From NCBI GenBank assembly GCA_001687465.1, contig LVLI01000215.1, forward strand, positions 1-56,481: a stretch of 56,481 bases of DNA. Direction: 5' to 3'. Source of the DNA: Halocafeteria seosinensis (taxonomy: Eukaryota). The notes below the pieces were generated by a model. It was not told the origin of the DNA, did not search any database, and was given only the letters and a program-made list of their open reading frames with translations. Position 1 is the first letter of the stretch. Every line of letters starts with the position of its first letter. Shown here one piece after another: positions 16,777 to 43,110 of this stretch. The translations under genes were made by a program, and so were the position numbers.

Positions 16777-16974
16777 GGTGACGAGAAGTTCGTGTTCTCC
16801 ATGCACAACACACTACGCTCAGCAAATAAACAAATAAAAAAATAGATACACAGAAAGAGTTAATCTAGTAGACGTGCAACAATCGAGGCGTTGGCGTAAT
16901 ATGTATTCGAAACGATTGTACGCGCCTCGGGGACCGGGGTGCCAGCTGGAACTTCAGCCTGGAACTTCTTCAAG

Positions 16975-19258: not shown

Positions 19259-20953
19259 ATGACGGTATACGCTGTGCTAGCATGGATTGTGTACCCCATG
19301 CTCGGTTTACTCATGGGATTGGCGGCTGTCGCCATAGCGTGGTGGTTTTCGAGACCACATTTGAATGGACCAAGCGGCGCTGACTTCCAGAAGCGCTTCA
19401 AAGAGCACCGAGAGAAGGTAAGAAGTTTGTGTTGAACATGGACTTCCGCTTGAGCGAGTGGCCATGGCACTTGCCCTTCCCCTGATTGAGCCAAATTAAC
19501 ATGTGATGATGGTTATGCATGGTGCGCAGGTTTACGTCCCGATCTTGCAAGAATGCGGCTCGCTCTCGGCCGAAATCAACAATATGGTCTGCACAGCGGA
19601 CCCCGCAATTATTAAGAAGTTGCTAAATCGGAAAGAGTACTTCGAAAAGCGATCACGTATATATAAGGTATGAAGACAGTCTGAAGAACGTTTCCTACGG
19701 AAGCCAGCACATTGGGGTGTTTGGTATTGCAGCTTGGGCGTTACATCCTATCAGGTCAAGATGGCATCTTGCTGATGGACGGCGAGGTGTGGAAGCAACA
19801 TTCCCGCGCTTTGAAACCACTCTTCCAGGGTTCGCATGTTGACTCGCATGGCGAAGCAATAGCCAAAATTACGATGAACCATTTGCGGTATTGGGAGTGT
19901 GGTGAAACTGGAGAGATGGGAGTATTGCCTTCTCGCAGAGCTGCCTTTGGAAGCGAGATGTATAACTCCCCTCCTTTTCCTCGCGGTCGAGATGACTCAA
20001 CTCCTGAGAGTGTCCCCGATAATTTAAAAGGAGGTGAAGATTTATTTTCTGCTGTTCAGGGAATGCTGATGGACTTTATCCTACTGTATGGGTACAACAT
20101 CTCTCCGCGTAGCCGTGATGGCGTCGCTTTGGCCAGTGAGCTTTACTTATACCGTAACTTAATGGGTGAGACAAGTGCACTTAACTATTTGCGGCTAGCT
20201 CGTTGCACGAACAGAATAAGAAAGCTTGTCAACGAGCTAGCGCAGAGGGAGCAAGAAGACAGGAAGAATCAGGACTCTATGGTCACCGACGGCGAAAAAC
20301 AGGGAACTCGTCCAAACTTTCTCACCAATCTTATGGACCATGGTTTCGATATGAAAGAAATATCGGCCGAAATCAATCACATCTACGGGGCGTACAAAGC
20401 TGTTGGATTTGTCACTACGTGCATGATTTGGCGGCTGTCGAAACATCCCCAATGGGTAGAAAAACTGCGGGAAGAATGGAAATCGAAATTAGGATGTCAC
20501 GGCTCGGCTACACCAACACGGGGTGATCTAACGAGACTGCCGCTTACAACTGCGGTAATACACGAGTGTTTGCGCATGCATGTCGTGTCATTTGGTGTAG
20601 TGAGGCAAATTAGCTCCCCACTGGAGATTGACGGCAAAACTTTCCCGGAAGGAACCGAGGTCATGATCTTGCTCCACGCAGTTCACCATCATCCGGATTT
20701 CTGGGAAGATCCATTGACGTTCAATCCTTCACGATTTTTAGAGCAGGCGCCCACTGCGTATACTTACATTCCGTTCTTATCAGGACCGCGAATGTGTGCT
20801 GGGCAGTATCTGGCAGACTTACATCTCATTGTCATCTTGCACTCGATTTTTTGGAACTATAATATAAGCACTGGGGTGGATGATCTTGCGCTTAAACCCG
20901 ATAACTACTCAACCATTGATGGTAAGATTCCTTTCACCGTCCAAAAGCTCTAA
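19259..20953 (+). CDS. Cytochrome P450, copy 1 (~505 aa); exons 19259-19417, 19530-19667, 19733-20953
   Basis: N-terminal TM anchor MTVYAVLAWIVYPMLGLL; ExxR (HECLRMH); FNPSRF; heme motif PFLSGPRMCAG; two phase-0 GT-AG introns. Confidence 0.9.
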
Positions 20954-21288: not shown

Positions 21289-22975
21289 ATGACGATGGCC
21301 GTGGAATGGGCAAAGATCCTGTGGAGCGCCACTTTGTACGTGGTGCTTCCACTTTTAGGAAGTGTAATCCTCGCCGGGATACTCTGGTGGCGTTCACGGC
21401 CGCATTTGAAAGGCCCTAGTTTCGGGACGATGGGAAAGCGGTTCGAACAAGAGCGCGAAAAGGTAAAATGCCCTGGTTTATGGTGTGGAAATATTGTACA
21501 GGGCAACAATGGCATGTATTCGTCCTCCTTCCGCAGATGTTTGTGCGTGTCCTGGAGGAGACAGGGGATTTATCGATCGAATTGGGGACCTTTATCGTCA
21601 CGGCAGATCCTCAGGTGATTAAGACTCTGTTCAACAGCAAAGAACATGTGAAAACGAGGTCGAGGCTCTACAAGGTATGTGTGTAGCAGCGTCCAAAAGT
21701 GGAAGCGATCTTCAACATCTCCCTGGGATGGTGCAGTTTTCACGGTATGTCTTTTATGGCATGGATGGCATTCTAAATTTGGACGGCGATGAACATGCAC
21801 GACATGAGCGCACTCTCAAAAGCATTTTCCATGGAAGCCATGTGGACAAACATGAGAAAATGGTGGAGACGGTAGTCGGTAAACACCTGGCAAGCTGGAA
21901 ACGTGGAGAAACAGCCGAACTTGGTGTATTGCCCTCGCGGCGCCACGACTACGGATCCAGTTTCTATAATCAAGAACCTTTCCCATCTGGGAAGAGCTTT
22001 GGTTCAACAAGTACGATCCCGGAGGAATCCTCAACCGGAGGACCCGACTTGCTATCGGCTGTCCGTGGGATTGCACTTGATGTGATCCTATTGTATGGAT
22101 ACAATGTCAACCCGTCATCTGAAACAGGGGTTGCTCTTGCTAGTGAATTAAGCCTATATCCACAGCTGGTTGGAGTGTTCTCCAATACTGGTGCATTGAT
22201 GGCTTGGAATTTCCGCAAATTGGTTCAGTGCACTAACAGGATTCGTCACATCGTGAAAGAAATACGCGATGAGCGACCTGCCAAAAATGATTCTCAAGGA
22301 AGCACCATTTCGGATGGAGAAAATTTTGGTTCCAGTCCAAACTTCATCGACAACATGATACGAGATGGGTATGAGCTCAAAGAAATGGCTGCCGAAGTCA
22401 ACCATATCCATGGAGCCCACAAGGCTGTCGCCTTTGTACTTACTTGTATGCTATGGAGGCTGTCTAAGCATCCTGAATGGGTTCAAAAGCTGAGAGAGGA
22501 ATGGCGGAATAATTTGAAAGCGGGAGAATTACCTCGTCAAACTGATTTGGAAAAGTTCCCTGTCACAAGAGCGGTGATCCATGAATGTTTACGGATGCAT
22601 GTCGTCTCTCTAGGCGTTGTCCGTCGGACTGGCGAACCATTGGAAATAGGAGGCAAAGTAATTCCTGCCGGGACGGAGATTGTGGTCTTACTCCATGCGT
22701 TGCACCATCACCCAAAGTTCTGGGAGAATCCCTTGACATTCGATCCGTCGCGTTTTCTTGAGGGCAAGCCGGCTCCATACACATTCCTTCCGTTCCTCAC
22801 GGGGAAACGCATGTGCGCAGGAAAACATTTGGCGGAACTGCAACTAGCTGTGGTGCTATACACCCTCCTACGGGATCATGATATCCGCACCGGAGTGGAC
22901 GAACTGGTGCTTAAAGCAGATATGTACTCTGCATTAGATGTTACCATTCCTTTTACAATGCATGCAATTAACTAA
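21289..22975 (+). CDS. Cytochrome P450, copy 2 (~516 aa); exons 21289-21462, 21537-21674, 21737-22975
   Basis: TM anchor; HECLRMH; FDPSRF; PFLTGKRMCAG; same intron positions and 138-nt middle exon as copy 1. Confidence 0.9.
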
Positions 22976-26399: not shown

Positions 26400-27110
26400 A
26401 AAGAAATGAGCCTTCAGCGGGTTATGTATGGTTACGGGCTTCCGTAGTACTGTAGTAGCAGTGTATATAATTATGTCAAGATCAGTAGTCCTGAATTAAT
26501 AATAAGACCAGCCGTTCACACAAGCAATGTGTGAAAGCTTTAACGTCGGTTCCTACACTTAGGCAAATCGCGGCAGTGTAATACCGTAAGCCCACGATCG
26601 ATGGAAGTCTTTGTGTTTACCCATATCTCATTTCTGATCTCTCTCATTTCACCTCCTGATTTCGTTAGCAGCGCTTGGGTGACACGCCATTCCAATAACT
26701 TATTTTCCAATTCCTGCTTATGGACATCGGTAGGTTCTTCGTCCACTTGTTGTTGTACCATCGAGATCATCAGTTCGCATATCTGTGAAACTTGCCGTAT
26801 AATAGGTAACAAAGATATTGTTGCCGTACCATGCCTCTGCCGCTTACCTCGACATGTAACTGGAGTTCCTGTAGGCCAGCGGGTAACCCACTGCGGGTTG
26901 TAGCTTGTCGCCCGTCTGACCTTGCGCTTCCAATGCGTTTCGAACCATTTCCTGATGCACTGCCAGTTCTTCCGCGGCTTGCTTTAAAGAACACGCATGT
27001 GTGCCTTTGTCTCCCAAACAGTCATTTTTATGCGCTTGAAGCAGCTTTCTGACCTCCTTGACCCGCTCACGTTCACACAGAAATTTCGATTCCTCTGCCA
27101 AATTTTGCAT
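26400..27110 (-). pseudogene. Frameshifted paralog of the TPR-like gene at 28282
   Basis: LKQAAEELAVHQE..GDKLQP, LLEWRVTQALLTKSGGEMREIRNEIW and, after a frameshift, YYTAAICLSVGTDVKA and KAHFF match the 28282 gene. Same intron donor position; at least two frameshifts. Confidence 0.75.
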
Positions 27111-28281: not shown

Positions 28282-29704
28282 ATGGCAACATTGCAGGAGG
28301 AATCGAAGACGGAGTTGGTCTTCAAATTTGAGCAGCTCAACAAAGTCAAAGAGCTTCTCCAAGAGCATAATATTCTGAGAGATAAGGATTTATGCTGCGC
28401 ATCTAATGGTACTCTTGGCGAGCCGAAGCGTTCTTCTGAAAACGAAGCAGAAGAAGGACTCGACAACGAGTCCAAAAAGCTCAAAGACTACTTGCGCAAG
28501 GCTGGTGAAGCGCTAGCACCATTTCAAGAAGAACTTCGAACCATCTTGGAAACCAATCATCGCGCAGGGAAAAGACTGCAACCTGTAGATCCGGAAGAAT
28601 GTAAATTTTACGCCGAGGTATGCTTCATATATGTATCAACTCAGATACAGACAGCGTTCCAGCTCCTCACTGCTTCACTGTGTTTATGAGGTCTTAATTG
28701 TCTGTTTGCAGGTTTGTAATCTCATGGAACGCCTTTTGAACCTTCAGACAGATAACCGACAAAGGAAGGAAGAGTCCAAGAAAATCCAAGAAATGATCTT
28801 GGAATGGCGGGCCACTCGGGGTCTAATGACGAAATCCGCTGAAGAGATGCGTCAAATCGGAAATGAAATGTGGACCTACCACAACAATTTCCATCGAGCG
28901 TGGGCTTATTACACGGCTGCTATTTGTCTGAGTTTGGGGAAGGATTTCAAAGCATTATGCAATCGAGCGGTAATTGCTTACGGCAATTATGTGAATCCCA
29001 GCACTGGTGAAGCGTGTGACACGGACAATGAGACGCTGAAAGCTTTATATGACGGATACTTTTCCGCCATTGCAGCGTACAAGTGTGAGCCGACCCACAC
29101 AAAAGCTCATCTCTTTGCAGCCAAACTAGCGAAGGCTCTCGGGTTCTATGACACACTCTCTGAGACTATCAATGGGGCTTACGGGCAAATTCTAGGACGG
29201 TTGGCATCGTCTTCCGGTTTTTTTACTGTCGCTCGTATTTCGGAGTGCATCAACCAAGGCAGACTGGGCATGGGTTCATATAATCCCGACACCCTCGACA
29301 AGAAGTTGGAAGCAATAAGGGCGTCCTGGAAAACCGTCGGAGCTCTGATAGAGGGATGCGCGGAATGCGATGCTAAAACTCAACTCAGAGCACTGGTTGA
29401 TATTATATATCAGGAGCGTGAAAGGACCGCTACGATATATGGAGAGAAATGTACAGCGTTGGAGCAATCCAAGAAGAAATATACTGGGGATGTAAAGTCT
29501 CAACAAGTGATGCAAAGCCACTGCGAGGAATCATTGGATAAAACTGCAAGAATCCCATCTGAGCAACAAGTCCCCTTAAACCAACGGTTTCACGCGATTC
29601 ACGACAACGGGAATTATTTCGAGATGAAGAGCTCTTGCATTGCCTTATCCTTAGCAGAGAATATCTGGCGGAAAAAGTGGATAAAGGGATACATCCTAAT
29701 ATAA
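28282..29704 (+). CDS. TPR-like helical repeat protein, interrupted at ~29667 by the AT-rich island; exons 28282-28617, 28712-29704
   Basis: EMRQIGNEMW...AWAYYTAAICL...KALCNRA...EPTHTKAHLFAAK resembles a TPR triplet. Intron 28618-28711. The last 12 codons (WRKKWIKGYILI) come from the island's palindrome. Confidence 0.65.
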
Positions 29705-29874
29705 TAGGGGATTATTCCCAAAATTTTATAGCAGGGGGTAAAACCCTAAATCCACAGGGAACCTACTACCTGAAGGTAGTAGTCCTATACATTTAGGGCT
29801 TAATCCTCTATAATAAAACTTAGGGGTTTATCCTCAATCATACAGGGATGTATCCCTATATCCACCTTTTCCGC
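29668..29874. repeat. 207-bp imperfect palindrome (long hairpin) at the left boundary of the viral island
   Basis: GCGGAAAAAGTGGATAAAGGGATACATCC... pairs with ...GGATGTATCCCTATATCCACCTTTTCCGC, ungapped over ~84 bp; apex CTACTACC-TGAA-GGTAGTAG. Confidence 0.92.
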
Positions 29875-29875
29875 A

Positions 29876-29928
29876 AAATTACACTTAAAATTAAGTTTTA
29901 ACTTAACTTTTAAATTACACTCAAAATT
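29876..29928 (+). repeat. Two 17-bp direct repeats AAATTACACT(T/C)AAAATT with a short palindrome between them
   Basis: Copies at 29876-29892 and 29912-29928; TTAAGTT-TT-AACTTAA lies between them. Confidence 0.8.
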
Positions 29929-30122
29929 TCATTTTTAAATAAGTAGCTTGAAAGCGAAGCGTGGTTATTGGATTGTAGTCCGAAGCTACAATGACCGAGG
30001 CGTCATTGAGCGTCCTATTCTTATTATTATATTTTCTCTAAATAGAAATTTTTATAATTAGTTTANANTAATTTTAAAAAGAAAATCAATTTCTTCTTTT
30101 TTAATATTTTAAAATTAAAGAA

Positions 30123-30130
30123 AAAATTGA
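30123..30130 (+). promoter_or_regulatory. AAAATTGA, Mimiviridae-type early promoter motif
   Basis: Exact octamer 37 nt upstream of the ATG at 30168. A near copy (GAAATTGA) on the opposite strand at 30086-30093 forms an inverted repeat. The AT-rich context lowers specificity. Confidence 0.55.
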
Positions 30131-30167
30131 TTTTTATATTTTTAAAAATAATAAGTAATATAAAACA

Positions 30168-30449
30168 ATGGGACGAATGAAAGACCACTTGATAGAACAA
30201 GAAGAGAACGAAAATTGCGACTATATGGTTAATACTTGGGGTTCTACTTATTTAGAAGCTAGAAGAATTTATGAAGAAGGTGAACCTAAACATTATTTTG
30301 AGATAGATACTAGTTATACACATGATGAAAGGGAAAACTTTTTTGAAGATTTGAAAATATTTGATTATCCAGTATGGGAATACTTGGCATTTGAAAACCC
30401 AGCTGGAGTTTTACATTGTGTTGATTATATATTTTCTGACCTAGAATAA
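30168..30449 (+). CDS. Small acidic viral hypothetical protein (93 aa)
   Basis: ATG-initiated intronless ORF with AT-rich codons, downstream of AAAATTGA. Confidence 0.7.
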   Translation: MGRMKDHLIEQEENENCDYMVNTWGSTYLEARRIYEEGEPKHYFEIDTSYTHDERENFFEDLKIFDYPVWEYLAFENPAGVLHCVDYIFSDLE

Positions 30450-30452
30450 TAT

Positions 30453-30611
30453 ATGATGAAACAACGATATTTGGTGTGGATGAAACGCAGAACTCCTACA
30501 GGAATATCAAGAAGAAAAATAATAACTTATGCTTTGAGTCCTGATCAAGCTAAACACTTTGCTAAACACAGACTAAGAGGTTATTCTATTCAATCTGTAA
30601 AACGTGATTAG
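30453..30611 (+). CDS. Small basic viral hypothetical protein (52 aa; not in the ORF track)
   Basis: MMKQRYLVWMKRRTPTGISRRKIITYALSPDQAKHFAKHRLRGYSIQSVKRD. Starts 3 nt after the previous stop; its stop overlaps the convergent protease stop. Confidence 0.6.
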   Translation: MMKQRYLVWMKRRTPTGISRRKIITYALSPDQAKHFAKHRLRGYSIQSVKRD

Positions 30612-31159
30612 ATATCCTTTGTGAGCCAACTAACCGTTTGATCAAAGGTTTTTAGACCGAATTTATTACGCTTTTTTTCTAAAAAGTTAATAAAACCTTT
30701 TATCGTTAGGTGTTTTTTACGATAGCGTAAGATGACATAACGACCGCAAGTTTCACTATCCGTATACTGTAATTGTAATTGCTGATCATTATAGTAAATA
30801 GGTTTGGGATTATTTCCTTTAACAACAGATTCAAGAATTCTAGCTCGTGATTGATTTAATTTTTTGTTTTTAGAAAGAGTATTTATACTTAAACTTTGGT
30901 CAGGATAATCACCGTAGCTATCAAAAAAACTAATATATTTACCGTGATCTAAAAGCAGACACCAATGACCGTAAGATTTTTTAAACAAATACAGAATGAT
31001 AACCGCTTTAGAGGGGTTATTTAAAACATCATAGATAGTTTTGTTTTTAGGGATCTCAGCGTATGTAATTATAGGAATTTTTTGTTTGGTGGCTTCTTGT
31101 ATTTGAGCACCACTTAAAGCTTGATATTTTAACTTACTAATAAGATCACTATTGACCAT
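30608..31159 (-). CDS. Adenain-like (clan CE) virion maturation cysteine protease, virophage/Polinton type
   Basis: Catalytic His-Asp-Gln-Cys order: YGHWCLL, ISFFDSYG, QLQ...SETCGRYVILR; 183 aa. Confidence 0.9.
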   Translation of the reverse strand: MVNSDLISKLKYQALSGAQIQEATKQKIPIITYAEIPKNKTIYDVLNNPSKAVIILYLFKKSYGHWCLLLDHGKYISFFDSYGDYPDQSLSINTLSKNKKLNQSRARILESVVKGNNPKPIYYNDQQLQLQYTDSETCGRYVILRYRKKHLTIKGFINFLEKKRNKFGLKTFDQTVSWLTKDI

Positions 31160-31187
31160 TTAAATCTCTATATTTAGAGATTTAAAT
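31158..31187. terminator. Perfect 13-bp stem / 4-nt loop hairpin (mimivirus-style transcript 3'-end signal) containing a TCTA late-promoter-like motif
   Basis: ATTTAAATCTCTA-TATT-TAGAGATTTAAAT fills the whole intergenic gap between the 49-aa ORF stop and the protease ATG. Confidence 0.6.
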
Positions 31188-31336
31188 TAATTTTCTGTTT
31201 CAACGCTAGATTTACATTCAGAATTACCGCACTTACTTTGAAACCAACATTTTTTACGGATCAACTTGTAGATGAGTGGTGAAATTCCAGCACTACCCCC
31301 AATTACTGTTGTAAGGATAATGGTAAGTAGTTCCAT
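31187..31336 (-). CDS. Small viral membrane peptide (49 aa; not in the ORF track)
   Basis: MELLTIILTTVIGGSAGISPLIYKLIRKKCWFQSKCGNSECKSSVETEN: hydrophobic N-terminus, basic patch, three Cys; fills the gap between neighbouring genes. Confidence 0.55.
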   Translation of the reverse strand: MELLTIILTTVIGGSAGISPLIYKLIRKKCWFQSKCGNSECKSSVETEN

Positions 31337-31357
31337 TTCTATAATTAAGCTCAGATT

Positions 31358-32530
31358 TTATTTAAGCTTTTGAATAACTTTTTTGTGTTGAAGTGGAGGA
31401 CCATATGTAGATTTTTTTGTACCGAGATTAGCACCACCTTTCTTCTTACCTTTCTTACCCTTTTTATTTTGCTTCTTTTGCTTTTGTTTTCGTTCTTTTT
31501 CTTGTTGTTTACGAATTTGTTTCTTTTCTTTTTCTGTGGCTAGTATTAAATCGTCAGGATCACCTTGGAAAGTTTTTGTTGCGTGTTTAGGTTTAGCACC
31601 CTTGTTCAACTTTTTGAAAAAGTTAATAGTATCTTTGATATTTTTTACAGGACCTCCACCTTTTTTACCACTTCCTTCTTCAGGTACAGCTTGACCAGAT
31701 TGAGCTGGTGTAGATTGTCCTTGAGTTGGGGCTTTTTCTCCAGTAATACCATTTTGGATAGTATTTAGTTTTTCATTGGGAAGTTTAGACTTATTAGCTC
31801 TAGTCTTAACCATGGACATTAATTGTTCACCATTGGATTCGATCAATTGATCATAGAAAACTTCTAAAGCCGGAACACGATCTCGAGTGTTAAGAGTACT
31901 TTGTAATTTTATTAAATAAAGATAAATGATTATAATTAGACGAAATTTACCCCTGAAAGCTCTTAAAGTAGCTGGCTGAGCTCGGCTTAAAATAGTTTCA
32001 ATTTTAGAGATTAAATTCTTGAGTTGGTCTGATTTAAGTTTTTGACCGTTTTCTTGGAGCATAGTTAAAACCTTTTGAATAGATTCGGTTTTAATTTCAT
32101 CTACTTTGGGATTTTTACCCTGAACAGCTAAAACCCATTCTGAAAGAAGATTTTGGATTTGGAGAATTTCACCTCTAGCTTCAGTTAAGGGCATACTTTT
32201 AGGATTGGGGAGGGCTGTTTCACCACTTTCTTCACCTTGTTCAAAGTTTTGAGCATTTCTTTTTTTTAACCTTAAAAGTTCTTGCTGAAGATTTGGGTTT
32301 TGGCTATTACCCCCTCCTTTTTTATCCAGTGAAAGACCATTTGAATGATTGTTATAGAAGCGACCTTCAATACTACTAGCGATAACACTATTATGTGGGG
32401 CATTATCTAAACGTCTTTTGGTTTCAATTCTGTTTCTAGCTAAATCATAAGCTTGTTGATTAAGGGGATTAGAAAGATTAGCATGATATCCTTTAGGTTT
32501 CTGAGCGAAGTTATCATTTCTACCTAGAAT
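31358..32530 (-). CDS. 5'-truncated basic viral protein with three KKGG motifs (putative core protein precursor)
   Basis: The frame of ORF 31358-32194 stays open without a Met for ~112 more codons up to the island edge; Lys-rich C-terminus. Confidence 0.7.
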   Translation of the reverse strand: MLGRNDNFAQKPKGYHANLSNPLNQQAYDLARNRIETKRRLDNAPHNSVIASSIEGRFYNNHSNGLSLDKKGGGNSQNPNLQQELLRLKKRNAQNFEQGEESGETALPNPKSMPLTEARGEILQIQNLLSEWVLAVQGKNPKVDEIKTESIQKVLTMLQENGQKLKSDQLKNLISKIETILSRAQPATLRAFRGKFRLIIIIYLYLIKLQSTLNTRDRVPALEVFYDQLIESNGEQLMSMVKTRANKSKLPNEKLNTIQNGITGEKAPTQGQSTPAQSGQAVPEEGSGKKGGGPVKNIKDTINFFKKLNKGAKPKHATKTFQGDPDDLILATEKEKKQIRKQQEKERKQKQKKQNKKGKKGKKKGGANLGTKKSTYGPPLQHKKVIQKLK

Positions 32531-32532
32531 TC

Positions 32533-35500
32533 TGCCGGGTTTGTCTTACTGGGTTTGTTCCCGCAAGCAATCGAACCACATGCGTGCGATGTGGCACTGG
32601 GGAGGTGGCCGGTGAAACGAATGTACAGTCCAACAAATGCCAAGCCAATGAAATTTCCGATAGCAACCGAGGAGAATGTAATAGTTGTGGTAAAGGAAAA
32701 GTACCAAATGAAGACCAAACACTTTGTACCGAATGTCCATCTACCCAGGTGGCAAGCGAGGAGGATGCCACTTGCCAACCGTGTGGTCCGGGCAAGGTAC
32801 CCGACGGCAACAATGAGGTGTGTATTACCTGCGGTGTAGGTAGAAAGCCACATGAAGACGGAGATAAATGTCAGAATTGTCCAGTGTATTCGTATGCCGA
32901 GGACGGTGATGTCACTTGTACAAGCTGTGGTGTGGGAAAGATTCCCAAGGGTGACCAAAGTGGGTGTGATGTGTGCCCATTACATCAATACTCGGGAGAA
33001 TTTCAAACTACCTGTCAGAACTGCAATCCGGGAAATATACCGACTGTTGATCAATCGGCCTGTAGCGTCTGTGCTGCCCATGAGGTAGCGACAACGGGAG
33101 ATACATCGTGTAAATCATGTGCGGACAATGAAGTCCCTGATGATGAGAATGAATTCTGTGTCGTTTGTGGAAATGGGGAAGCTCCAAGTGAAGATCGAAC
33201 GAGTTGTGTAGCCTGTGCTGAACACGAATATTCCGGAACCGATGACAGTGAATGTCGGAGTTGTGGTGCGGGAAAGATTCCAACTGGGAACCAGGATGGG
33301 TGCATATCTTGCGAACAGTATGAGGTTTCCCGCGAGCAGGAAACATCCTGTCGAATTTGTCCGACTGGGTTTGTGCCCGCTTCTAATCGATCAGCATGTG
33401 TGGAATGTGGTACCGGTAAGGTGGCTGGTGAGACCGACGTATTTTGTCGAAAATGCGAAGCCAACGAGATTTCGGATAGCAACAAAGAACGATGTATTAG
33501 TTGTGGAAAAGGCAAAGTACCTAATGAAGACCAAACACTTTGTGTAGATTGTCCGTCAACGGAAGTGGCTACCAAAGAGGATTCCACTTGCAAGCCGTGT
33601 GAGCTTGGCAAAATCCCGGACAGCAGTAACGAGCTGTGTATCACGTGTGGCGCAGGGAGAATCCCACATGAAGATGGAGACAAATGTGAGGAGTGCGCGG
33701 CCTATTCTTATGCTGAGGATGGAGATGTCAGTTGTACTGCTTGTGGGATTGGCCATATTCCCAACAGTGGTCAGAGTGATTGCGACGCATGTCCATCACA
33801 CCAGTATTCCGGCGAATTTGACCCCACATGCCAGAGTTGTACCACAGGACGTGTACCGAATGGCGACCAGTCGGCTTGCACTGCTTGTGCTGACGACGAG
33901 GTGGCGACAGTAGGTGATACATCGTGTAAAGCATGTGCTGCCAATGAGGTACCTGATGATAAAAATGAATTTTGCGTTGCTTGTGGGAATGGGAACGCTC
34001 CGAATGAGGATGGCACCAGTTGTGAGGTCTGTGCAGAACATGAATACGCAGGAACCGATGACAGTGAATGTCGCAGTTGTGGGGAGGGGAAGATTTCGAA
34101 TGAGGACCAGTCCGGGTGCATATCGTGCGAGCCATATGAAGTTTCCGAAAATGAAGAGACTTCCTGTCGGATTTGTTATACGGGGTTGATTCCCGCTAGT
34201 AATCGTTCCACATGTATTCAATGCGGGAGAGGGGAGGTGGCCATGGTCACCGATATAATATGCCATTCATGTGACGCCAATGAGATCGTTGACGACAACA
34301 AAGAGGAGTGTGTACGTTGTGGGACAGGTAAGGTACCAAATGGGGATCACACGATTTGTATGCACTGCCCGGTGGACGAGGTGGCTTCGGAACAAGATTT
34401 CATTTGCCACCGCTGTGCTCCGGGAAAAATACCGGACGACAAAAACGAAATGTGCATTAGTTGCGGCGTGGGCATGATACCGAATGAAGACGGTGACAAA
34501 TGTAAAAAGTGTCCTTCATATTCATATTCTAGGGTAAATGATTTCACTTGTACTGGGTGTGGTGTCGGTCATATTTCGAACAGTGATCAGAGTGACTGTG
34601 AGGCCTGTCCGATGCACCAGTACTCGGGAGAATTCGAGAGTACGTGCGAAAACTGTGACTCAGGAACTGTGCCTAACGGCGATCACTCCGCTTGTACTTT
34701 TTGTGCCGATAACGGGGTAGCGAAATCCGGGAAAGCATGGTGTCGTTTGTGTTCTGCCACAGAGATATCCGATGACGAAAATGAGTCCTGTGTCGCTTGC
34801 GGGGATGGGACAATACCCAGTAAAGATGGTACCAACTGTGAGGCATGTGACGAACACGAATATTCAGGCACAGATGATATCCAGTGTCGGACGTGTGGTG
34901 CTGGCAAGGTACCCAATAAGAATCGGAATGGTTGCACATTCTGTAAACCGTACGAAGTCTCCGGTATTGATGATGCATATTGTCGGAGCTGTCGTAACGG
35001 ATTCGTTCCCGCTGCAAATCGATCAACATGTGTCCAATGTGGTATTGCGGAGGTAGCCAGTGAGTTTAACGTATTTTGTCGAAAGTGTAAAGCCAACGAG
35101 GTTACTGTTAGCAACCAGGAAGAGTGTATAAGTTGTGGTGGGGGTGCTGTACCGAACGGGGACCAGACAGCATGTATGGAATGCTCCTCTAACGAGATAG
35201 CAACCGTCACTGACGCAACCTGCAAACTGTGCAAGCCAGGAACGATTCCCGACGAAGCCAAGAAGTTCTGTATCCCTTGTGGGGAAGGAAGTATACCGCA
35301 TGATGGTGGTGATAAATGCGAGGAGTGCGCTGCCCATACATATGCAAGGGAGAATGACGATACATGCGAGGAGTGTGGAGAGGGACGCATTCCTAATGCT
35401 GGACGTGATGGGTGCGTTGTTTGTCCAAGGCATCAGTACTCGCAAGCTGAGGAATCAATTTGCAGCAGGTGTGGCCGTGGAAGGGTACCCAACGATAACC

Positions 35501-38500
35501 AGTCTGCATGTACAGAATGCACAGACAACCAAGTTGCGACAAGCAATGATGCAATATGCCGGTTCTGTGAAAATACCGAAGTACCAGATACGAACAATGA
35601 GTTTTGTGTACGCTGTGGGCCAGGAAGAGTCCCCAATGAGGATGGGGCTGCATGCGTCGCCTGTGCAGAGCATGAGTATGCGTCCATGTACGACGCAGAA
35701 TGTAGGAAATGTGGCCGTGGTAGGGTTCCAACCCCAAAACAGGATGGGTGCCTCGCTTGCGATGCTTATAAGGCATCTGGGAATGAGGATGCTTCGTGCA
35801 AAGTATGTGGTTTAGGCTCCGTACCCTCTGTAGACCGATCAACTTGCGAGGCATGTCAAGCTGGAAAGGTGGCAGGTGTGGCTGATGTTTTTTGCCGTTC
35901 TTGCAACGGTAATGAAATAACGGACTTTAACAACGGGAAGTGCAAACCTTGCGGTCCCGGAATGGTTCCTAATGCAGATCAGTCGAGTTGCACTTTGTGT
36001 CCGTCGAACCAGGCAGCGAGACTATGGGATGCAACTTGTAAACCATGCAATTCAGGGAAAGTACCTGACGCGAAGAACGAAGTATGTATTAGCTGCGGCT
36101 CAGGAAAGATACCAAATAATGATGGGGATAAATGCGAACATTGCGCACCGCACATGTACGCTGACGAAAATGATGCTGAGTGCAAGATGTGCGGGGTTGG
36201 AAAAATACCCAATGCTGACCAAGATGGTTGTACAAGCTGCCCTGCGCATATGGTGGCTTCAAGTGGTGACAGTATATGTAACCTCTGCGGGCCGGGAATG
36301 ATACCGGATCAGAACCAAGCTGCCTGCAAATCATGCGATGTGGGGAAGGTCGCGAGAGACGAAGATGGCTTCTGTCGATCATGTGAGCTGTGGGAGATTG
36401 CAAACAGTAACGCGGAAGAATGTGTTACTTGTGCGCCTGGATCGGTTCCTAATGCCAATCAATCTACATGCGTTGCTTGTAGCGCTGATGAAGTGGCAGA
36501 GCCGGGTGATGCGCTATGTCGATCATGTGATGGGGCCACTGTACCAGATAGGAGGTATGAAAAGTGTACCACCTGTGGTCCAGGAAAGGCTCCCAATGAT
36601 GATCATACAGACTGCACTATTTGCAAGAGCAATGAAGTTGCCAGTACAGGTGATTCGACGTGCAGACTATGTCAAGGTGGTACAATACCTGATGATAAAC
36701 ATGAGACGTGTATAAATTGCGGTCCTGGTACGATACCGAACGAAAATGGGAACAAGTGTATATCTTGCTCTTCCGCAACGTACGCGTCAGGGAACGATGA
36801 TACATGCAACAGCTGTGGAGTGGGCAAAGTGCCGAATTCGAGGCAAGATGGATGCAAAAGGTGCCCTGCACATCATGTAGCTGGAATGGATGACGATGTC
36901 TGCAAAACCTGTGGTCCAGGAAAAGTCCCGTCCAACAACCAGTCGATTTGTGTCCGATGTGCAGATGGATTTGTTGCAGCTGATGAAGACGCTTCATGTC
37001 GCTCCTGTGAGCCGAACGAGATCCATGACAGCAACCAAGAAGCGTGTATCAGCTGCAGTGGTGGAACGGTGCCAAATGAGGACCAATCTGGTTGCAAGGA
37101 ATGTGAGGATGATGAAGTGGGCTCACCAGAAGACGCATTATGCCGACGCTGCGAAGATGGAACGGTGCCAGATGACAGTCGAGAAGTGTGTGTCAGCTGT
37201 GGTCCAGGAAAGGTGCCCAAGCTTACGGGTGATAGTTGTGAGCCATGTACTCCCTATGAATATGCGGCGAATAGTGCAGCATTATGTGCATTGTGCGGAC
37301 CCGGCTCAGTTCCCAATACTGCCGGCGATGGTTGCCAAAGTTGCCGTGCCTACGAAGTAGCTAGCACGAAGGATGACATATGTCGGAGCTGTGGACTTGG
37401 TATGGTACCTAATGCAAATCAATCCAGCTGCGAACACTGCGGCGCGGGTGAAGTGGCTGGAAGTGAAGATGGATTGTGTCACCGCTGTGATGCCGGTAAA
37501 GTTACTGATAGCAAGCACGAGCACTGTGTAGATTGTGGTCCCGGCAAAATCCCAAACACTAACCAATCGACTTGTGTTGAATGTGAATCCAACAAAATTG
37601 CGACTTCAGGGGATGCAACGTGCCGATCGTGCGATTCTGGTCAAGTACCAAACAGCAAGCAGGATTCTTGCGAAAGTTGTGGGCCGGGAAGAGTGCCAAA
37701 CGTAGCAGGAGACCAATGCAGCACATGCGCAAAGCATGAGTATGCTACGGAGGAAGATGCCGATTGCAAAATATGTGGAGTTGGTAAGGTACCAAATGCA
37801 GAACAGGATGGGTGTACCAGTTGTCCGCTACCCCAAGTGGCTGATTTTGAAGATGACGTTTGCCAAAGCTGTCCTCCGGGGCATGTACCCGCTGAAAATC
37901 AATCTTTGTGTATAAGATGTGAGAATGGTTTCGTTGCTGGTATCGACGATAGTTCATGTCAGTCGTGCGAAGCGAATGAGATTTCGGATGGCAACCATGA
38001 GATATGCGTTAGCTGTGGTGCAGGAATGGTACCGGACGAGGACCAATCCAACTGCAAATCGTGCGACGATAATGAAGTTGCTGCTCCAGAAAATTCGTCC
38101 TGCCAGGCCTGTGGACCGGGCGAAGTTCCCGATAGCAAACAAGAAGCTTGCATCATCTGCGGTGCCGGTACTGTGCCTAATGCGAATGGTGATAGGTGCA
38201 CAACGTGTAGCGGGCACGAATATGCCGCCATCGGAGATGATGAGTGTAAATTTTGTGGTCCTGGTAGCGTTCCGAACGCTAAGCATGACAGCTGCACCAG
38301 CTGTGAGGCCCATGAAGTTGCGGGGCTTGTTGATGATATATGTCAAAGCTGCGGTCCTGGAACAAGACCCAATTATGATAAATCCACCTGCCTAACATGC
38401 GATGTTGGTCACATCTCGGGTTCCGAAGAAGATATATGTCGTTTGTGCGATCCCGGCATGGTCCCCGATTTCAAGCAGGAACAGTGTATCAAGTGTGTCA

Positions 38501-41500
38501 AAGGACATACACCCACCAATAACCAGTCGACCTGCATTCCTTGCGCCGCCAATGAGGTAGCAAGATCCGGGGACCCAGCGTGCCAAGTATGCGCGCCCAA
38601 TGAGATTCCGAATAGTCTGCACGAGATGTGTGTAAGCTGCGAAGCGGGAAACGTTCCAAACACTGCCGGGGACCAGTGCGAATCTTGCCCTTCATACTTA
38701 TATGCCACGGCAAGTGATGCTGAATGCCGAGAATGTGAGCCTGGCGCTGTCCCTACGAGGGAACAGGATGGGTGTACGAGTTGCCAGGCTCATGAGGTAG
38801 CTGGTCGTCAACATGACGTATGTCAATCATGTGGCCCGGGACGAATCCCTGATGCGAGTCGGTCGAGTTGTGTGAAGTGTGATGCTTGGATGGTCGCGCG
38901 AAACGAGGATATTTCCTGTCGGCTATGTCAGCCTGATCAGATCCCAGATAGTAACCAAAGAATATGCATTAGCTGTGGAGCAGGGAGTGTATCTGCCGCT
39001 AATCAAACGATGTGCACTCGGTGTGCGCCAAATGAGGTGGCCTCATCAGACTCGTCGTTTTGCCGCGCGTGCGGTACGGGCAAAGTGCCAGATGATAAAC
39101 AAGAAATGTGCATAAGGTGCGGGTCCGGGAAAATACCTGACGCTAGTGGACGCACCTGCATATCCTGTGGACCACACCAGTATGCGACAACCAGGGACCT
39201 GGAGTGCAATTTGTGTATGCCGGGAAAAGTACCAAACGCTGGTAGAGATCGGTGCACTAGCTGCAAGGCATATGAAGTTGCTGGATCAGATGATGATATC
39301 TGTCAGACGTGTGGGTCAGGTAGGATGCCCAATGCTAACCATTCTGCCTGTCTAACATGCGGCGTTGGTCACATCTCTGGCCCGGAAGAAGCAGTATGTC
39401 ACATGTGTGAACCTGGCAAGGTCCCCGATTTCAAGCAGGAATACTGTCTCAGCTGTGCGCCAGGACAAGCACCCAACCACAATCAGTCGACCTGCATTCC
39501 TTGTGGCGCCAATCAGGCAGCAAGGTCAGGGGACGCGTCGTGTCATTCATGTGCTCCGTATGAGATTCCTGACGCTCCGCACGAGACTTGTGTAAACTGC
39601 GGAGCAGGAAAAGTGCCAAACAATGACGGCGACCATTGCGAATCGTGCCCCGCTCACTTATATGCCACGACAAATGATGCTGAATGCCGAGAATGTGAGT
39701 CTGGCACTGTCCCTACGAAGGAACAAGGTGGATGTACGAGTTGCCAGGCTCATGAGGTAGCTGGCCCTCAAGATGACGTATGTCGATCATGTGGTGCAGG
39801 ACAAATACCGAACGCTGATCAGTCCAGTTGTGTACGGTGCGATGTTGGTTTGGTTGCGGCGAGGGAAGATGTTTCCTGTCGGTCCTGCGAGTTGAACGAG
39901 GTCGCAGATAGTAACCAAGAAATGTGCATCAGCTGTAGGACTGGCAGCGTCCCTATTGCAAACCATTCCGTTTGTACTCGATGTGCTGTGAATGAGGTCG
40001 CCACCACACAAGATGCCTCGTGCCGACCCTGCGGTGCTGGAAAAATTCCCGATGACAAGCAAGAGGTTTGTATTGGCTGTGGAGCAGGCAGAACGCCTGA
40101 TCCTATTGGAGCAGTGTGCGTGTCTTGTGCCCCACATGAATATTCTCGACAAAATGATCAGGAATGCATCTTATGTGGGCCGGGACGAGTCCCCACCGCT
40201 ACCCAAGACGGATGTGAGCCCTGTCCAAGGTCTCACGTTTCTGGTTCAGACGAAGACGTGTGCACGAGTTGTACCTTTGGGATGATTCCTAACGCTAAAC
40301 ACTTTGCATGCATGAACTGCTCTGACAATCAGGCAGCCGGGATAGGCGACGAACAATGCAAAACTTGTGGACGTGGCAAAATGCCGGATGCAAACAGAGA
40401 GCATTGTGTGAGGTGTCCAGATGGTGAAGTTGCGACTATTGAAGCATCCACGTGCCAACGGTGCGGCCCTGGACAAGTCCCAAACCCCGATAAGGATGAG
40501 TGCCGAATCTGCAGTGTAGGACAGTATGCTTCGTATTTTGACACTGTTTGCCACGCTTGTGAGAATGGCATGGTCCCGTCGGAAGACCGAAGTAGTTGTG
40601 TGGTATGTCCTCCATATGCCGTTGCGTCTTCAAAAGACACACAGTGTACCATTTGTGGTTACGGAAGCACCCCAAATGAAGAGCGTGACGGCTGTATTCC
40701 ATGCGCGTCGCACGAGGTCTCCGGGTCCGAGGACCATACCTGCAGGAGCTGTGGACCTGGAAAAATCCCTAGCGCTACACAAGGCACATGCATATTCTGT
40801 GCTCCGCATCAATTCTCATTGTCCACTGATTCCATGTGTACTACCTGCGGAAATGGAGAAATCCCTACAACAAAAGGTGATGGTTGCGAGCCCTGTTTGA
40901 AATTTCAGGTTGCGTCAGATCTAAGTTCTCGCTGTGAGACATGTCCCTTGGGTATGGTTCCTGATCCATTTCAAAGAGAATGCACCAATTGCACTAGTTA
41001 CCAGATTGCTACCAAGTTTGATACGGAATGCCGCAGTTGTGGAAATGGAATGATACCGACGCTAGATCGAGGCACTTGCCAACGCTGTCCAGCTCATGAG
41101 TTTGCTGCAGATGGAGACGTGGTGTGCCAGCAATGCGGAGCTGGAGAGGTTCCTAGTAGTGAGCGAAATGTGTGCATTCGTTGCGCAAGCTTCCAATTCG
41201 CCACAGCATCCGATAGTACGTGTCAGATTTGCGGTGCTGGAGAAATACCAACCGCAAGTCAAGACGGCTGTCAGAAATGCTCGCTGAATCAATTTGCTAC
41301 CGAGGCAGATGATCAATGTCAGTATTGTGGTGCAGGTAAGATTCCGAACGAGAGTCACGATGGATGCAATGATTGCCCTGCCTTCGAGTACGCAAAAGGT
41401 CTCGATGTTGAATGTCAACCTTGCGTACCCGGCCAAGTCCCTAATGCAGCTCAGGATGGTTGTACAAATTGTTCTTCTCATGAAATTGCAACTCTCCAAG

Positions 41501-43110
41501 ATTCTGAATGTATATCCTGTGGCACAGGAAAGATACCAAATGCTGCACAGGATGAATGCCTGTCTTGCAGTCCCAAGAAAGTATCTGCGGATACTGACAG
41601 TGAATGTCATCCCTGTGGTGGAGGGGCTGTACCAGATTTTATCAGTGGCTTCTGTGACACATGTCCTCCTCATATGTTTGCAAGTGAGTCAGACACCGAG
41701 TGTCAATACTGCGGGTATGGAAGGGTCCCCAACGAAGATCAAAGTGATTGCGAGGATTGCCTCGACCGCGAGATCGCGACGAGAAACGATTCAACATGTC
41801 ACGTCTGTAACGGCGGAGAGATTCCTAATCCTGGAAAGAATGGATGTACCGCTTGCCCCGATTTCGAAGTCGCTGACGATAACGATGTTTCTTGCCAACC
41901 GTGCGGTGTAGGAACAGTTCCACGTTTAGACAGAAAGGCCTGTATAGAGTGCCCTGTATATCAGTTCGCGACACTGACAGACGTTGCTTGTCAGATTTGT
42001 GGGGTTGGACGCATCCCATCCAATTCCCAAGACGGCTGTTTCACTTGCCCGGAGAATGAAGTTGCAACGGAGCAATCGTCCGAATGCTCCCCGTGCGCTG
42101 GCGGCACTATCCCTAACCGGAACCAGTCGACATGCATACCTTGCGAGCCGTTCGAAATAGCAGGAGCCAACGACACTACCTGCCACTCATGCGGGGAGGG
42201 CTACGTTCCTGCCGATTCCCGAAGCCGTTGTGAGAAGTGTCCCTCTGGGTCAACTGCTTCCTTTGGCGACGCGACTTGCCATTCGGTGGTAAGTAGCGCA
42301 GCCGCCCCAAATATTGGAAAGATCGCCACCTCATTTGGTCTCCCTAGTGTCTTAGGAGTTGCGCTCATAGCGCTGCTTGTGTTGGTCTCTTTTCGTCGAC
42401 GACGAAATGCTGAAAAAGCGTGTAAGGTGAATGACACTAAAGTTATCTACGCACAGCAATTGGGGGTACCACTCAAAGTTTCCAAGTTTTTTACTGACGA
42501 TGAAGATATACCAAGGCTCCATCGACAAGGTGTCGTATCATATGGAGATGCTGACGAGGGCTTCACAGAAGACTCCGTACGTAATATTAATCCAATTATT
42601 GAAGAGTCGTCGAGTAAGTCTATGGTGACCTTCGTTGAGTTTGAAAACACTGAGATTGTAAGGAGGAATGCCTGGTCCATTGTTTCACTGGACCCACCGA
42701 TTCTTGACCATTCCACGCACGAGAACGAGATTCAAGTAACTAGCATCGACCAGATTGAAAAGGCCCGCCTCTCAGTGGCGCGAAGAACACGTTTGACCCT
42801 TCGAAAATGGAAGGCCTGGGTTCTTGGGGACGTGTCGCCACTTGTCTGCATTACTGTCTTTCCACCCCGAATACGAGATCGGAAATCACCCTTTTCAAGG
42901 GAGGATTCATTCGACTTCGACTGTAAGCTGGATGCAGAAGGGGAAGCCCCTGTTTCCGCAATGAAAATGATCAAAGGCAACAGCAAGCGACAATTTAAGC
43001 AGGTTAGATTGGATGACCTCGAGAGAATCAATGGCTTTTGTCGGAAAGCATACCATCCTGATGGTGTTCAAGTGTCACTAAAAGCCAAGCACGGACCGCA
43101 GAAAAAGTGA
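32533..43110 (+). CDS. Giant Cys-rich repeat (GCC2/GCC3- or furin/VSP-like) type I membrane protein, ~3525 aa, lacking its N-terminus
   Basis: Roughly two hundred CxxC units with GxxP(N/D) spacers; TM helix FGLPSVLGVALIALLVLVSF followed by RRRR (~42334-42405); ~240-aa cytoplasmic tail. The frame begins mid-repeat (CRVCLTGFVPASNR) with no ATG or signal peptide. Confidence 0.88.
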   Translation, partial: CRVCLTGFVPASNRTTCVRCGTGEVAGETNVQSNKCQANEISDSNRGECNSCGKGKVPNEDQTLCTECPSTQVASEEDATCQPCGPGKVPDGNNEVCITCGVGRKPHEDGDKCQNCPVYSYAEDGDVTCTSCGVGKIPKGDQSGCDVCPLHQYSGEFQTTCQNCNPGNIPTVDQSACSVCAAHEVATTGDTSCKSCADNEVPDDENEFCVVCGNGEAPSEDRTSCVACAEHEYSGTDDSECRSCGAGKIPTGNQDGCISCEQYEVSREQETSCRICPTGFVPASNRSACVECGTGKVAGETDVFCRKCEANEISDSNKERCISCGKGKVPNEDQTLCVDCPSTEVATKEDSTCKPCELGKIPDSSNELCITCGAGRIPHEDGDKCEECAAYSYAEDGDVSCTACGIGHIPNSGQSDCDACPSHQYSGEFDPTCQSCTTGRVPNGDQSACTACADDEVATVGDTSCKACAANEVPDDKNEFCVACGNGNAPNEDGTSCEVCAEHEYAGTDDSECRSCGEGKISNEDQSGCISCEPYEVSENEETSCRICYTGLIPASNRSTCIQCGRGEVAMVTDIICHSCDANEIVDDNKEECVRCGTGKVPNGDHTICMHCPVDEVASEQDFICHRCAPGKIPDDKNEMCISCGVGMIPNEDGDKCKKCPSYSYSRVNDFTCTGCGVGHISNSDQSDCEACPMHQYSGEFESTCENCDSGTVPNGDHSACTFCADNGVAKSGKAWCRLCSATEISDDENESCVACGDGTIPSKDGTNCEACDEHEYSGTDDIQCRTCGAGKVPNKNRNGCTFCKPYEVSGIDDAYCRSCRNGFVPAANRSTCVQCGIAEVASEFNVFCRKCKANEVTVSNQEECISCGGGAVPNGDQTACMECSSNEIATVTDATCKLCKPGTIPDEAKKFCIPCGEGSIPHDGGDKCEECAAHTYARENDDTCEECGEGRIPNAGRDGCVVCPRHQYSQAEESICSRCGRGRVPNDNQSACTECTDNQVATSNDAICRFCENTEVPDTNNEFCVRCGPGRVPNEDGAACVACAEHEYASMYDAECRKCGRGRVPTPKQDGCLACDAYKASGNEDASCKVCGLGSVPSVDRSTCEACQAGKVAGVADVFCRSCNGNEITDFNNGKCKPCGPGMVPNADQSSCTLCPSNQAARLWDATCKPCNSGKVPDAKNEVCISCGSGKIPNNDGDKCEHCAPHMYADENDAECKMCGVGKIPNADQDGCTSCPAHMVASSGDSICNLCGPGMIPDQNQAACKSCDVGKVARDEDGFCRSCELWEIANSNAEECVTCAPGSVPNANQSTCVACSADEVAEPGDALCRSCDGATVPDRRYEKCTTCGPGKAPNDDHTDCTICKSNEVASTGDSTCRLCQGGTIPDDKHETCINCGPGTIPNENGNKCISCSSATYASGNDDTCNSCGVGKVPNSRQDGCKRCPAHHVAGMDDDVCKTCGPGKVPSNNQSICVRCADGFVAADEDASCRSCEPNEIHDSNQEACISCSGGTVPNEDQSGCKECEDDEVGSPEDALCRRCEDGTVPDDSREVCVSCGPGKVPKLTGDSCEPCTPYEYAANSAALCALCGPGSVPNTAGDGCQSCRAYEVASTKDDICRSCGLGMVPNANQSSCEHCGAGEVAGSEDGLCHRCDAGKVTDSKHEHCVDCGPGKIPNTNQSTCVECESNKIATSGDATCRSCDSGQVPNSKQDSCESCGPGRVPNVAGDQCSTCAKHEYATEEDADCKICGVGKVPNAEQDGCTSCPLPQVADFEDDVCQSCPPGHVPAENQSLCIRCENGFVAGIDDSSCQSCEANEISDGNHEICVSCGAGMVPDEDQSNCKSCDDNEVAAPENSSCQACGPGEVPDSKQEACIICGAGTVPNANGDRCTTCSGHEYAAIGDDECKFCGPGSVPNAKHDSCTSCEAHEVAGLVDDICQSCGPGTRPNYDKSTCLTCDVGHISGSEEDICRLCDPGMVPDFKQEQCIKCVKGHTPTNNQSTCIPCAANEVARSGDPACQVCAPNEIPNSLHEMCVSCEAGNVPNTAGDQCESCPSYLYATASDAECRECEPGAVPTREQDGCTSCQAHEVAGRQHDVCQSCGPGRIPDASRSSCVKCDAWMVARNEDISCRLCQPDQIPDSNQRICISCGAGSVSAANQTMCTRCAPNEVASSDSSFCRACGTGKVPDDKQEMCIRCGSGKIPDASGRTCISCGPHQYATTRDLECNLCMPGKVPNAGRDRCTSCKAYEVAGSDDDICQTCGSGRMPNANHSACLTCGVGHISGPEEAVCHMCEPGKVPDFKQEYCLSCAPGQAPNHNQSTCIPCGANQAARSGDASCHSCAPYEIPDAPHETCVNCGAGKVPNNDGDHCESCPAHLYATTNDAECRECESGTVPTKEQGGCTSCQAHEVAGPQDDVCRSCGAGQIPNADQSSCVRCDVGLVAAREDVSCRSCELNEVADSNQEMCISCRTGSVPIANHSVCTRCAVNEVATTQDASCRPCGAGKIPDDKQEVCIGCGAGRTPDPIGAVCVSCAPHEYSRQNDQECILCGPGRVPTATQDGCEPCPRSHVSGSDEDVCTSCTFGMIPNAKHFACMNCSDNQAAGIGDEQCKTCGRGKMPDANREHCVRCPDGEVATIEASTCQRCGPGQVPNPDKDECRICSVGQYASYFDTVCHACENGMVPSEDRSSCVVCPPYAVASSKDTQCTICGYGSTPNEERDGCIPCASHEVSGSEDHTCRSCGPGKIPSATQGTCIFCAPHQFSLSTDSMCTTCGNGEIPTTKGDGCEPCLKFQVASDLSSRCETCPLGMVPDPFQRECTNCTSYQIATKFDTECRSCGNGMIPTLDRGTCQRCPAHEFAADGDVVCQQCGAGEVPSSERNVCIRCASFQFATASDSTCQICGAGEIPTASQDGCQKCSLNQFATEADDQCQYCGAGKIPNESHDGCNDCPAFEYAKGLDVECQPCVPGQVPNAAQDGCTNCSSHEIATLQDSECISCGTGKIPNAAQDECLSCSPKKVSADTDSECHPCGGGAVPDFISGFCDTCPPHMFASESDTECQYCGYGRVPNEDQSDCEDCLDREIATRNDSTCHVCNGGEIPNPGKNGCTACPDFEVADDNDVSCQPCGVGTVPRLDRKACIECPVYQFATLTDVACQICGVGRIPSNSQDGCFTCPENEVATEQSSECSPCAGGTIPNRNQSTCIPCEPFEIAGANDTTCHSCGEGYVPADSRSRCEKCPSGSTASFGDATCHSVVSSAAAPNIGKIATSFGLPSVLGVALIALLVLVSFRRRRNAEKACKVNDTKVIYAQQLGVPLKVSKFFTDDEDIPRLHRQGVVSYGDADEGFTEDSVRNINPIIEESSSKSMVTFVEFENTEIVRRNAWSIVSLDPPILDHSTHENEIQVTSIDQIEKARLSVARRTRLTLRKWKAWVLGDVSPLVCITVFPPRIRDRKSPFSREDSFDFDCKLDAEGEAPVSAMKMIKGNSKRQFKQVRLDDLERINGFCRKAYHPDGVQVSLKAKHGPQKK

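Follow-up and report, generated by a model that had tools for sequence, protein, structure and literature searches.

A block of 2,863 nt at positions 29668-32530 of contig LVLI01000215.1 from the protist Halocafeteria seosinensis (assembly GCA_001687465.1) is best read as one end of an endogenous virophage lodged in a host gene. The whole stretch analysed, hereafter the window, comprises the 56,481 nt of this contig from position 1 to 56,481. Our preferred reading, to which we assign a probability of roughly 0.45, is that a virophage genome likely entered a single host exon at full length and that the block is its left 2,863 bp, the right-hand 80-90% having likely been lost later. That the block is endogenous by one route or another, be it the one just given, a full-length integrant that the assembly shows only in part, or a terminal fragment captured during repair of a break, we consider highly probable. 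Endogenous virophages are widespread in protists (PMC10120064), and such elements, their fragments with target duplications and their terminal palindromes are already described from Cafeteria and Halocafeteria.

The block is set apart by its composition, having a GC content of 31.9% against 46.3% and 48.7% in the 1-kb flanks, and outside it the lowest GC content of any 2,863-nt stretch in the window is 0.435 (mean 0.477, sd 0.018). A GC change-point places the right edge at 32530; on the left the same method returns 29786-29874 and does not resolve the start, because the terminal palindrome located there has a GC content of 38%. The surroundings are those of a eukaryotic genome, with GT-AG introns and Pfam matches to arginyl-tRNA transferase, SPX plus sulfate permease, P450 and Cys-rich repeats. 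Within the block, five open reading frames (ORFs), whose products measure 93, 52, 183, 49 and at least 390 aa, are separated by gaps of 3, -4, 27 and 21 nt, and their GC content at third codon positions (GC3) is 0.20-0.28 compared with 0.43-0.50 in five host ORFs. A preliminary description of this DNA had reported the AT-rich block at these coordinates, five abutting ORFs, a protease of 183 aa with GHW, FFDSYG, Q and CG motifs, and two N bases at 30066 and 30068 as the only ones noticed in the window. All of this was recovered: the motifs lie together in the 183-aa ORF, and a count of non-ACGT letters found these two positions, both inside the block, and no others in the window.

The affiliation of the block is carried by the 183-aa protein, which, on its sequence and predicted fold, is a virophage-type maturation protease. 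A HMMER search of 1.84 billion representatives returned 1,811 relatives at E<=0.001, the best of them 49% identical, while a word-index protein search recovered no protease relative among 70 candidates. In a 40-sequence alignment, G64, H65, N124, Q129, C138 and G139 are invariant and D80 is nearly so. The AlphaFold model is confident (pLDDT, the predicted local distance difference test, 95.2), and among predicted viral structures Foldseek ranked Sputnik V9 first (E 2.9e-16, template modelling (TM) score 0.87), with five further unnamed rows at TM 0.84-0.86 and with adintovirus, MELD and giant-virus proteases at 0.57 or less (0.44-0.57 for adintovirus and MELD). Structural look-alikes in the Atlas fall into clusters with a viral share of 83-100%, chiefly Preplasmiviricota. 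When compared with a home-made profile of 54 proteases from loci bearing a major capsid protein (MCP), which is distinct from the ICTV profile, the protein scores 139.8 bits. It has no Pfam match, Peptidase_C48 included. The solved structures listed by Foldseek all have TM <0.5, adenoviral and cellular ones among them, the first rows being bacterial CE-clan enzymes; on realignment to solved structures the adenovirus protease ranked highest (Z 11.7), with OtDUB (11.4) level to within 1 and SENP/DEN1 at no more than 8.6. The protein therefore does not group with Ulp1/SENP or bacterial enzymes, a placement that the preliminary description had singled out for checking, and its designation there as a virophage-type morphogenesis protease stands.

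In total, 102 loci encoding protease relatives were fetched, and L014, a locus encoding the capsid protein V20 of PDB 3j26, was used as seed. Among the 46 loci of at least 9 kb, where several rows represent one contig taken twice, a Sputnik-type MCP is found in 39/46, an ATPase in 43/46 and a penton in 43/46. A tree of 47 rows out of 121 (the window protein, its 20 best matches and 26 proteases from loci of at least 12 kb), built with no outgroup and with a bootstrap that was not fully settled, nests the window protease among the proteases of MCP-bearing loci. It pairs with P0003 (98/96) within a long-branched clade of five members (100/100) that is separate from L014's own clade. Besides the window protein, this clade consists of four proteins from metagenomic assemblies (ENA, JGI and Logan) that are unnamed or labelled "hypothetical", so that the undescribed lineage once suggested for this element is borne out in the sense that, among the sequences placed, none of the clade's members has a name. 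Scans of viral contigs with the single proteins P0001, P0002, P0004 and P0006 gave no match, nor did the clade alignment against prokaryote genomes, and the 102 loci held no near-clade member, the best being 40% identical to P0003.

A Polinton, a Polinton-like virus (PLV) or another element that had acquired a virophage-type protease, or a cellular protease, could in principle account for the block, given that it holds no MCP to fix its class, that four of its ORFs have no relatives, and that bacterial CE-clan enzymes head the solved structures. Moreover, the PLVs known as Gosseviruses have a cysteine protease, and PLVs and virophages exchange genes (bioRxiv 10.64898/2026.07.28.741278; PMC10120064). 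We nevertheless regard this as very improbable. Those bacterial rows fall below the TM of 0.5 whereas Sputnik V9 reaches 0.87, the protease takes its place among those of MCP-bearing loci in the tree without an outgroup, virophage PRO is monophyletic in Roux et al. (PMC9952930), and the PLVs of H. seosinensis are described in the preprint as being without PRO (bioRxiv 10.64898/2026.07.28.741278). The block contains neither an MCP nor a polymerase. Of the alternatives entertained in the preliminary description, structure and the gene neighbours of the relatives point to virophages sensu stricto rather than to PLVs or Polintons.

The virophage class Maveriviricetes is delimited by MCP (the main criterion), ATPase and PRO in the complete genome, with a penton gene and a double-stranded DNA genome of 15-45 kb also expected (Roux et al., 2023; PMC9952930). 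These criteria apply to complete genomes, and the 2.86-kb fragment has the required PRO and lacks MCP, ATPase and penton. Profiles from virophage loci found none of the three anywhere in the window (best E about 1; 2.6 for the ATPase), which implies that the block is defective and unable to form particles; the protection against giant viruses raised in the preliminary description is thus beyond this piece itself. No Pfam match to an integrase (rve or tyrosine recombinase) was obtained in the four block ORFs scanned, the fifth being 49 aa long, and an integrase gene may have been in the missing part of the element.

The left end of the block is formed by a 207-nt imperfect palindrome, the first base of which is the first base of the block and directly follows the left copy of a TCTG repeat. 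Its arms are Watson-Crick paired at 69/96 positions, with 2 mismatches in the outer 28 nt (E 1.6e-28), and both strands are predicted to fold about equally (-44.0 and -45.5 kcal/mol). The palindrome folds far better than shuffled sequences (z -8.2, 0/100 as good). A fold-back artefact of amplification was considered as the source of this hairpin and judged unlikely, as the arms differ at 27/96 positions. An exact DNA scan of viral contigs with the hairpin stem gave 0 matches. Among the 46 loci of at least 9 kb, two distinct contigs (L060, and L050, which equals L071) likewise have palindromes at their ends, 233 and 347 nt long and lying inside terminal repeats; they give no frequency, since many of the other loci are cut or incomplete. 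Both carry virophage gene sets, and their 9 scanned ORFs matched a DUF5906/VapE-like domain, a nucleotidyltransferase and a penton in Pfam. In these complete-looking contigs the terminal repeats begin with perfect stems of about 110 and 150 bp with irregular tips (L060, 1-233 and 16915-17147; L050, 17553-17899). These stems may represent read-through of closed ends, and closed hairpin telomeres, or ends that are palindromic, would be expected to give such contigs. They differ from the block in that the stems are perfect up to the tip, in having no sequence likeness to the window, and in the placement of their proteases in other clades. On account of these palindromes, and of those reported beside target duplications in H. 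seosinensis (bioRxiv 10.64898/2026.07.28.741278), we regard the left end as a terminus native to the virophage.

At the right end, ORF E remains open up to the edge, and the 112 codons before its first ATG are free of stops, a length reached in 3/20,000 random draws of block composition, from which we infer that the gene was cut at the junction. Neither the right end nor any other part of the window holds an inverted copy of the left 500 nt, and the block is consequently taken as a fragment and not a complete element. A hairpin at the left junction together with a truncated gene at the right agrees with its earlier interpretation as the terminal part of a virophage-like genome.

The TCTG tetranucleotide abuts the block on both sides, and once the block and one TCTG copy are excised, 28712 to 43110 reads as a single open frame of 3,843 codons. 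Among 4,000 null draws, 3.3% gave a repeat of at least 4 nt combined with the correct frame. Compared with each other, the 24-nt contexts of the two junctions align at 12/14 positions, since each TCTG copy has AGAAT ahead of it (at 29658-29662 in the left flank), and null draws reached this likeness in 49/8,007, 33/8,007 and 90/20,000 cases. The Cys-repeat register of the host protein begins abruptly at about 32531. Whereas the preliminary description spoke of two broken host genes, the common frame of the flanks and the 4-nt repeat indicate that there is probably one split gene, a single gene interrupted by an insertion being far likelier than two false joins. At the level of the assembly, both junctions speak for a genuine integrant.

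A contig end of a free, co-sequenced virophage that was misjoined between two unrelated host pieces, with repeat and frame arising by chance, is an improbable source of this arrangement. Two independent false joins would have to yield one strand, one frame, a duplicated 4-mer and further likeness, for which the joint chance is well under 1%, although the free virophage contigs L060 and L050 do also end at the base of a palindrome. Such a misjoin would draw further on features that likewise weigh against our preferred reading. Both junctions are read from the assembled sequence. The restored frame would encode an odd product, in which a TPR-like region is joined to a Cys-rich membrane protein that lacks a clear signal peptide, and the fit of the left flank to the consensus of the Cys repeats is weak to negative (P 0.43-0.49 with a protein profile; P 0.02-0.15 with a DNA profile). 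A candidate splice acceptor at 29651-29657 may explain both the poor fit of the left flank and the odd restored protein.

According to the preferred reading, the virophage DNA would be linear, with fold-back ends that prime replication or are resolved during it. An integrase would attach the hairpin base to host DNA cut within the exon with a 4-nt stagger. At the far end of the element, the matching palindrome would later break, through cruciform cutting or failed excision; after resection of the break into the element, a short microhomology would serve to close it, and the host side would stay intact. Further points count against this sequence of events. The piece shows one end only and no second terminal repeat, whereas truncated endogenous mavirus-like elements (EMALEs) keep terminal inverted repeats at both ends (PMC8547959). 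For a deletion to stop exactly at the target duplication, the break has to fall at the terminus, and the additional match of AGAAT equally fits repair capture or an overlap in assembly. A repeat of at least 4 nt at the junctions was obtained in 10% of 4,000 null draws when boundary slack was allowed, and the junction statistics were designed after the repeat had been noticed. Finally, the block carries no integrase, and none was found by Pfam in the 9 scanned ORFs of L060 and L050.

Two other readings accept the integrant and differ in how its right part came to be missing. In the first, a full-length virophage is integrated here and the assembly presents only the left 2.9 kb, owing to repeat collapse or to a merge with the empty allele at a short near-match. 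Partial EMALEs are described as mostly assembly effects (PMC8547959), and multi-copy protist viruses as prone to misassembly from short reads (PMC10120064). The right TCTG copy is exactly what a full-length element would leave, the five ORFs look fresh by their GC3, the two Ns hint at conflicting copies, and a near-match of 9/10 bases before the right junction could have been the overlap for a merge. We hold this to be possible, if doubtful. In the second, which seems to us rather unlikely, a terminal fragment alone was inserted when double-strand-break repair by the host patched a broken virophage end into the exon at short matches on both sides, without an integrase. This would suit a piece with one natural and one broken end and no second terminal repeat, and the block ends do resemble the target (AGAAT before the right repeat, 3 of the first 4 bases following the left repeat), as seen in about 0.5% of null draws. 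Repair insertions, however, often lose or add bases, whereas a join at the exact hairpin base with a clean 4-nt duplication and no host base lost is of the kind that integrases produce (bioRxiv 10.64898/2026.07.28.741278; PMC8547959). The truncation may be biological or stem from the assembly.

The closest comparison is offered by the endogenous virophages of H. seosinensis itself (bioRxiv 10.64898/2026.07.28.741278), which are described as elements of 35% GC in a host of 47% GC, with PRO present, as here. Four subtypes have palindromes in their terminal repeats beside target duplications, as at the left end of the block, and 18 fragments without most core genes, some with target-site duplications, resemble it in kind. 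By description, the palindrome figured in that preprint measures 52 nt, while that of the block has 207 nt, is 72% paired and occurs at one end only, with no second terminal repeat. The preprint links the palindromes to replication genes other than pPolB and proposes hairpin priming of replication. EMALEs of Cafeteria burkhardae, a high-GC host, are integrated with target-site duplications of mostly 3-5 bp, at 13 insertion sites in exons and in some cases truncated, like the block, and the string "palindrom" is absent from the main text of that paper (PMC8547959). With respect to the features of a provirophage of EMALE type, the block has the few-bp target-site duplication (TCTG) and lacks terminal inverted repeats at both ends; the tree contained no mavirus sequence. 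The protease is 35% identical over 178 aa to V9 of L014, a likeness to Sputnik/Zamilon-like virophages that adds to the structural match, yet it sits in its separate long-branched clade. Sputnik differs further by its circular genome and by integrating into its giant virus.

We also considered that the block stems from an undescribed virophage clade with closed, mismatched hairpin telomeres of 207 nt, of the poxvirus flip-flop or parvovirus type, that would enter host DNA by a nick at the hairpin base, one end at a time. This is a speculative proposition that we think unlikely; poxvirus hairpin telomeres are merely mentioned in this context in PMC11296320.

The features of the block and of the interrupted gene are compiled in Table 1. 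ORFs A, B, D and E have no relative in PHROGs or among the 102 fetched loci (none significant in the case of ORF D), ORFs A, B and part of E have no Pfam match, and ORF E has no relative in the Atlas or the protein database; its AlphaFold model is unusable (pLDDT 47.5). A PDB sequence match to protein A repeats proved spurious, as no single stretch passes. On the minus strand of ORF E, a patch of 20% GC at 31900-31960 starts with GT, has AG 52 nt on, and shows TCTA followed by AT-rich bases; it resembles an intergenic gap or intron, yet the frame is open throughout and a 52-nt splice would break it.

An early-promoter motif and a hairpin transcript terminator have been described for Mimiviridae (PMC6163669; PMC6723459), and Sputnik transcripts have a hairpin at the gene end, like the one after ORF D (PMC6723459). 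In the block, AAAATTGA before ORF A and the hairpin after ORF D match these Mimiviridae signals, which suggests, from weak signs, that the parent virophage depended on a Mimiviridae-type giant virus for transcription. The motif arises in 2.1% of 50,000 shuffles of the 99 nt upstream, which is one of five upstream regions. CroV-type TCTA promoters are not consistently present upstream of the block ORFs.

Table 1. Coordinates of the features in and around the virophage-like block (positions in the window).
Feature	Position	Strand	Remarks
Host gene, 5' part	28282..29667	+	TPR-like by eye; exon 28282-28617, GT-AG intron 28618-28711, exon from 28712
Left TCTG copy	29664..29667		likely target-site duplication; abuts hairpin base
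Imperfect terminal palindrome	29668..29874		207 nt, predicted hairpin
Non-coding stretch	29880..30049		several short predicted stem-loops
AT-rich imperfect palindrome	30050..30165		contains both Ns (30066, 30068)
AAAATTGA motif	30123-30130		Mimiviridae early-promoter type, weak; 45 nt upstream of ORF A
ORF A	30168..30449	+	93 aa, acidic
ORF B	30453..30611	+	52 aa, basic
Predicted virophage maturation cysteine protease (PRO)	30608..31159	-	183 aa, adenain-like fold; H65/D80/Q129/C138 present
Stem-loop	31158..31187	-	13-bp stem, 4-nt loop, directly after ORF D stop, -12.7 kcal/mol
ORF D	31187..31336	-	49 aa, hydrophobic N-terminus, three Cys
ORF E	31358..32530	-	at least 390 aa, Lys-rich tail, 5' end cut by right junction
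Right TCTG copy	32531..32534		preceded by AGAAT (32526-32530)
Host gene, 3' part	32531..43110	+	about 3,500 codons of Cys-rich repeats, hydrophobic segment, tail; no own start codon at junction

Helitrons begin with 5'-TC and end with 3'-CTRR, insert between A and T with no target-site duplication, and carry a hairpin just inside the 3' end. An origin of this kind was rejected for the block: TC at 29664 and CTAG at 32524-32527 are present, but the base after CTAG is A, and folding of the last 51 nt reaches only -2.8 kcal/mol.

TPR-like in its pattern as judged by eye, the 5' part of the split host gene has no Pfam match, and the left host protein had no longer relative in the protein database, which is weak evidence. 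A pyrimidine-rich run at 29644-29657, ending in TTAG-CAG before the left repeat, resembles a tandem splice acceptor, and the Cys-rich protein could also have a short leader that begins with an ATG at 29625. On the minus strand, 26500-27110 is a decayed, frameshifted, inverted paralogue of the 5' part, too decayed to reveal the natural end of the left host protein. More Cys-rich repeat genes, some broken into short frames, occur at 44833-48780 and 50712-52418. Elsewhere in the window, tandem duplicates of unusually long arginyl-tRNA-protein transferase genes lie at 2080-5413 and 8704-11997 (70-82% DNA identity in repeats), an SPX domain is fused to a sulfate permease and STAS domain at 12135-16812 (minus strand), and cytochrome P450 genes are duplicated in tandem at 19685-20953 and 21623-22975.

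A protease clade composed of unnamed metagenomic proteins is hereby tied to a eukaryotic host genome, and the junction can be viewed to the exact base, from host DNA through a 4-nt duplication into a long imperfect terminal hairpin. In a limited search of the literature we found no description of a one-ended fragment with an intact duplication or of a 200-nt mismatched terminal hairpin. For the replication of the ends of virophages without a protein-primed polymerase, the hairpin model rests, within that limited search, on one preprint. A one-ended remnant with an intact duplication would show a route by which provirophages decay and host genes are disrupted. If the hairpin-telomere reading were true, the window would record a one-ended integration that knocked out the gene of a 3,900-aa cell-surface protein, and it would provide an exact sequence for testing the hairpin-priming model proposed for virophages.

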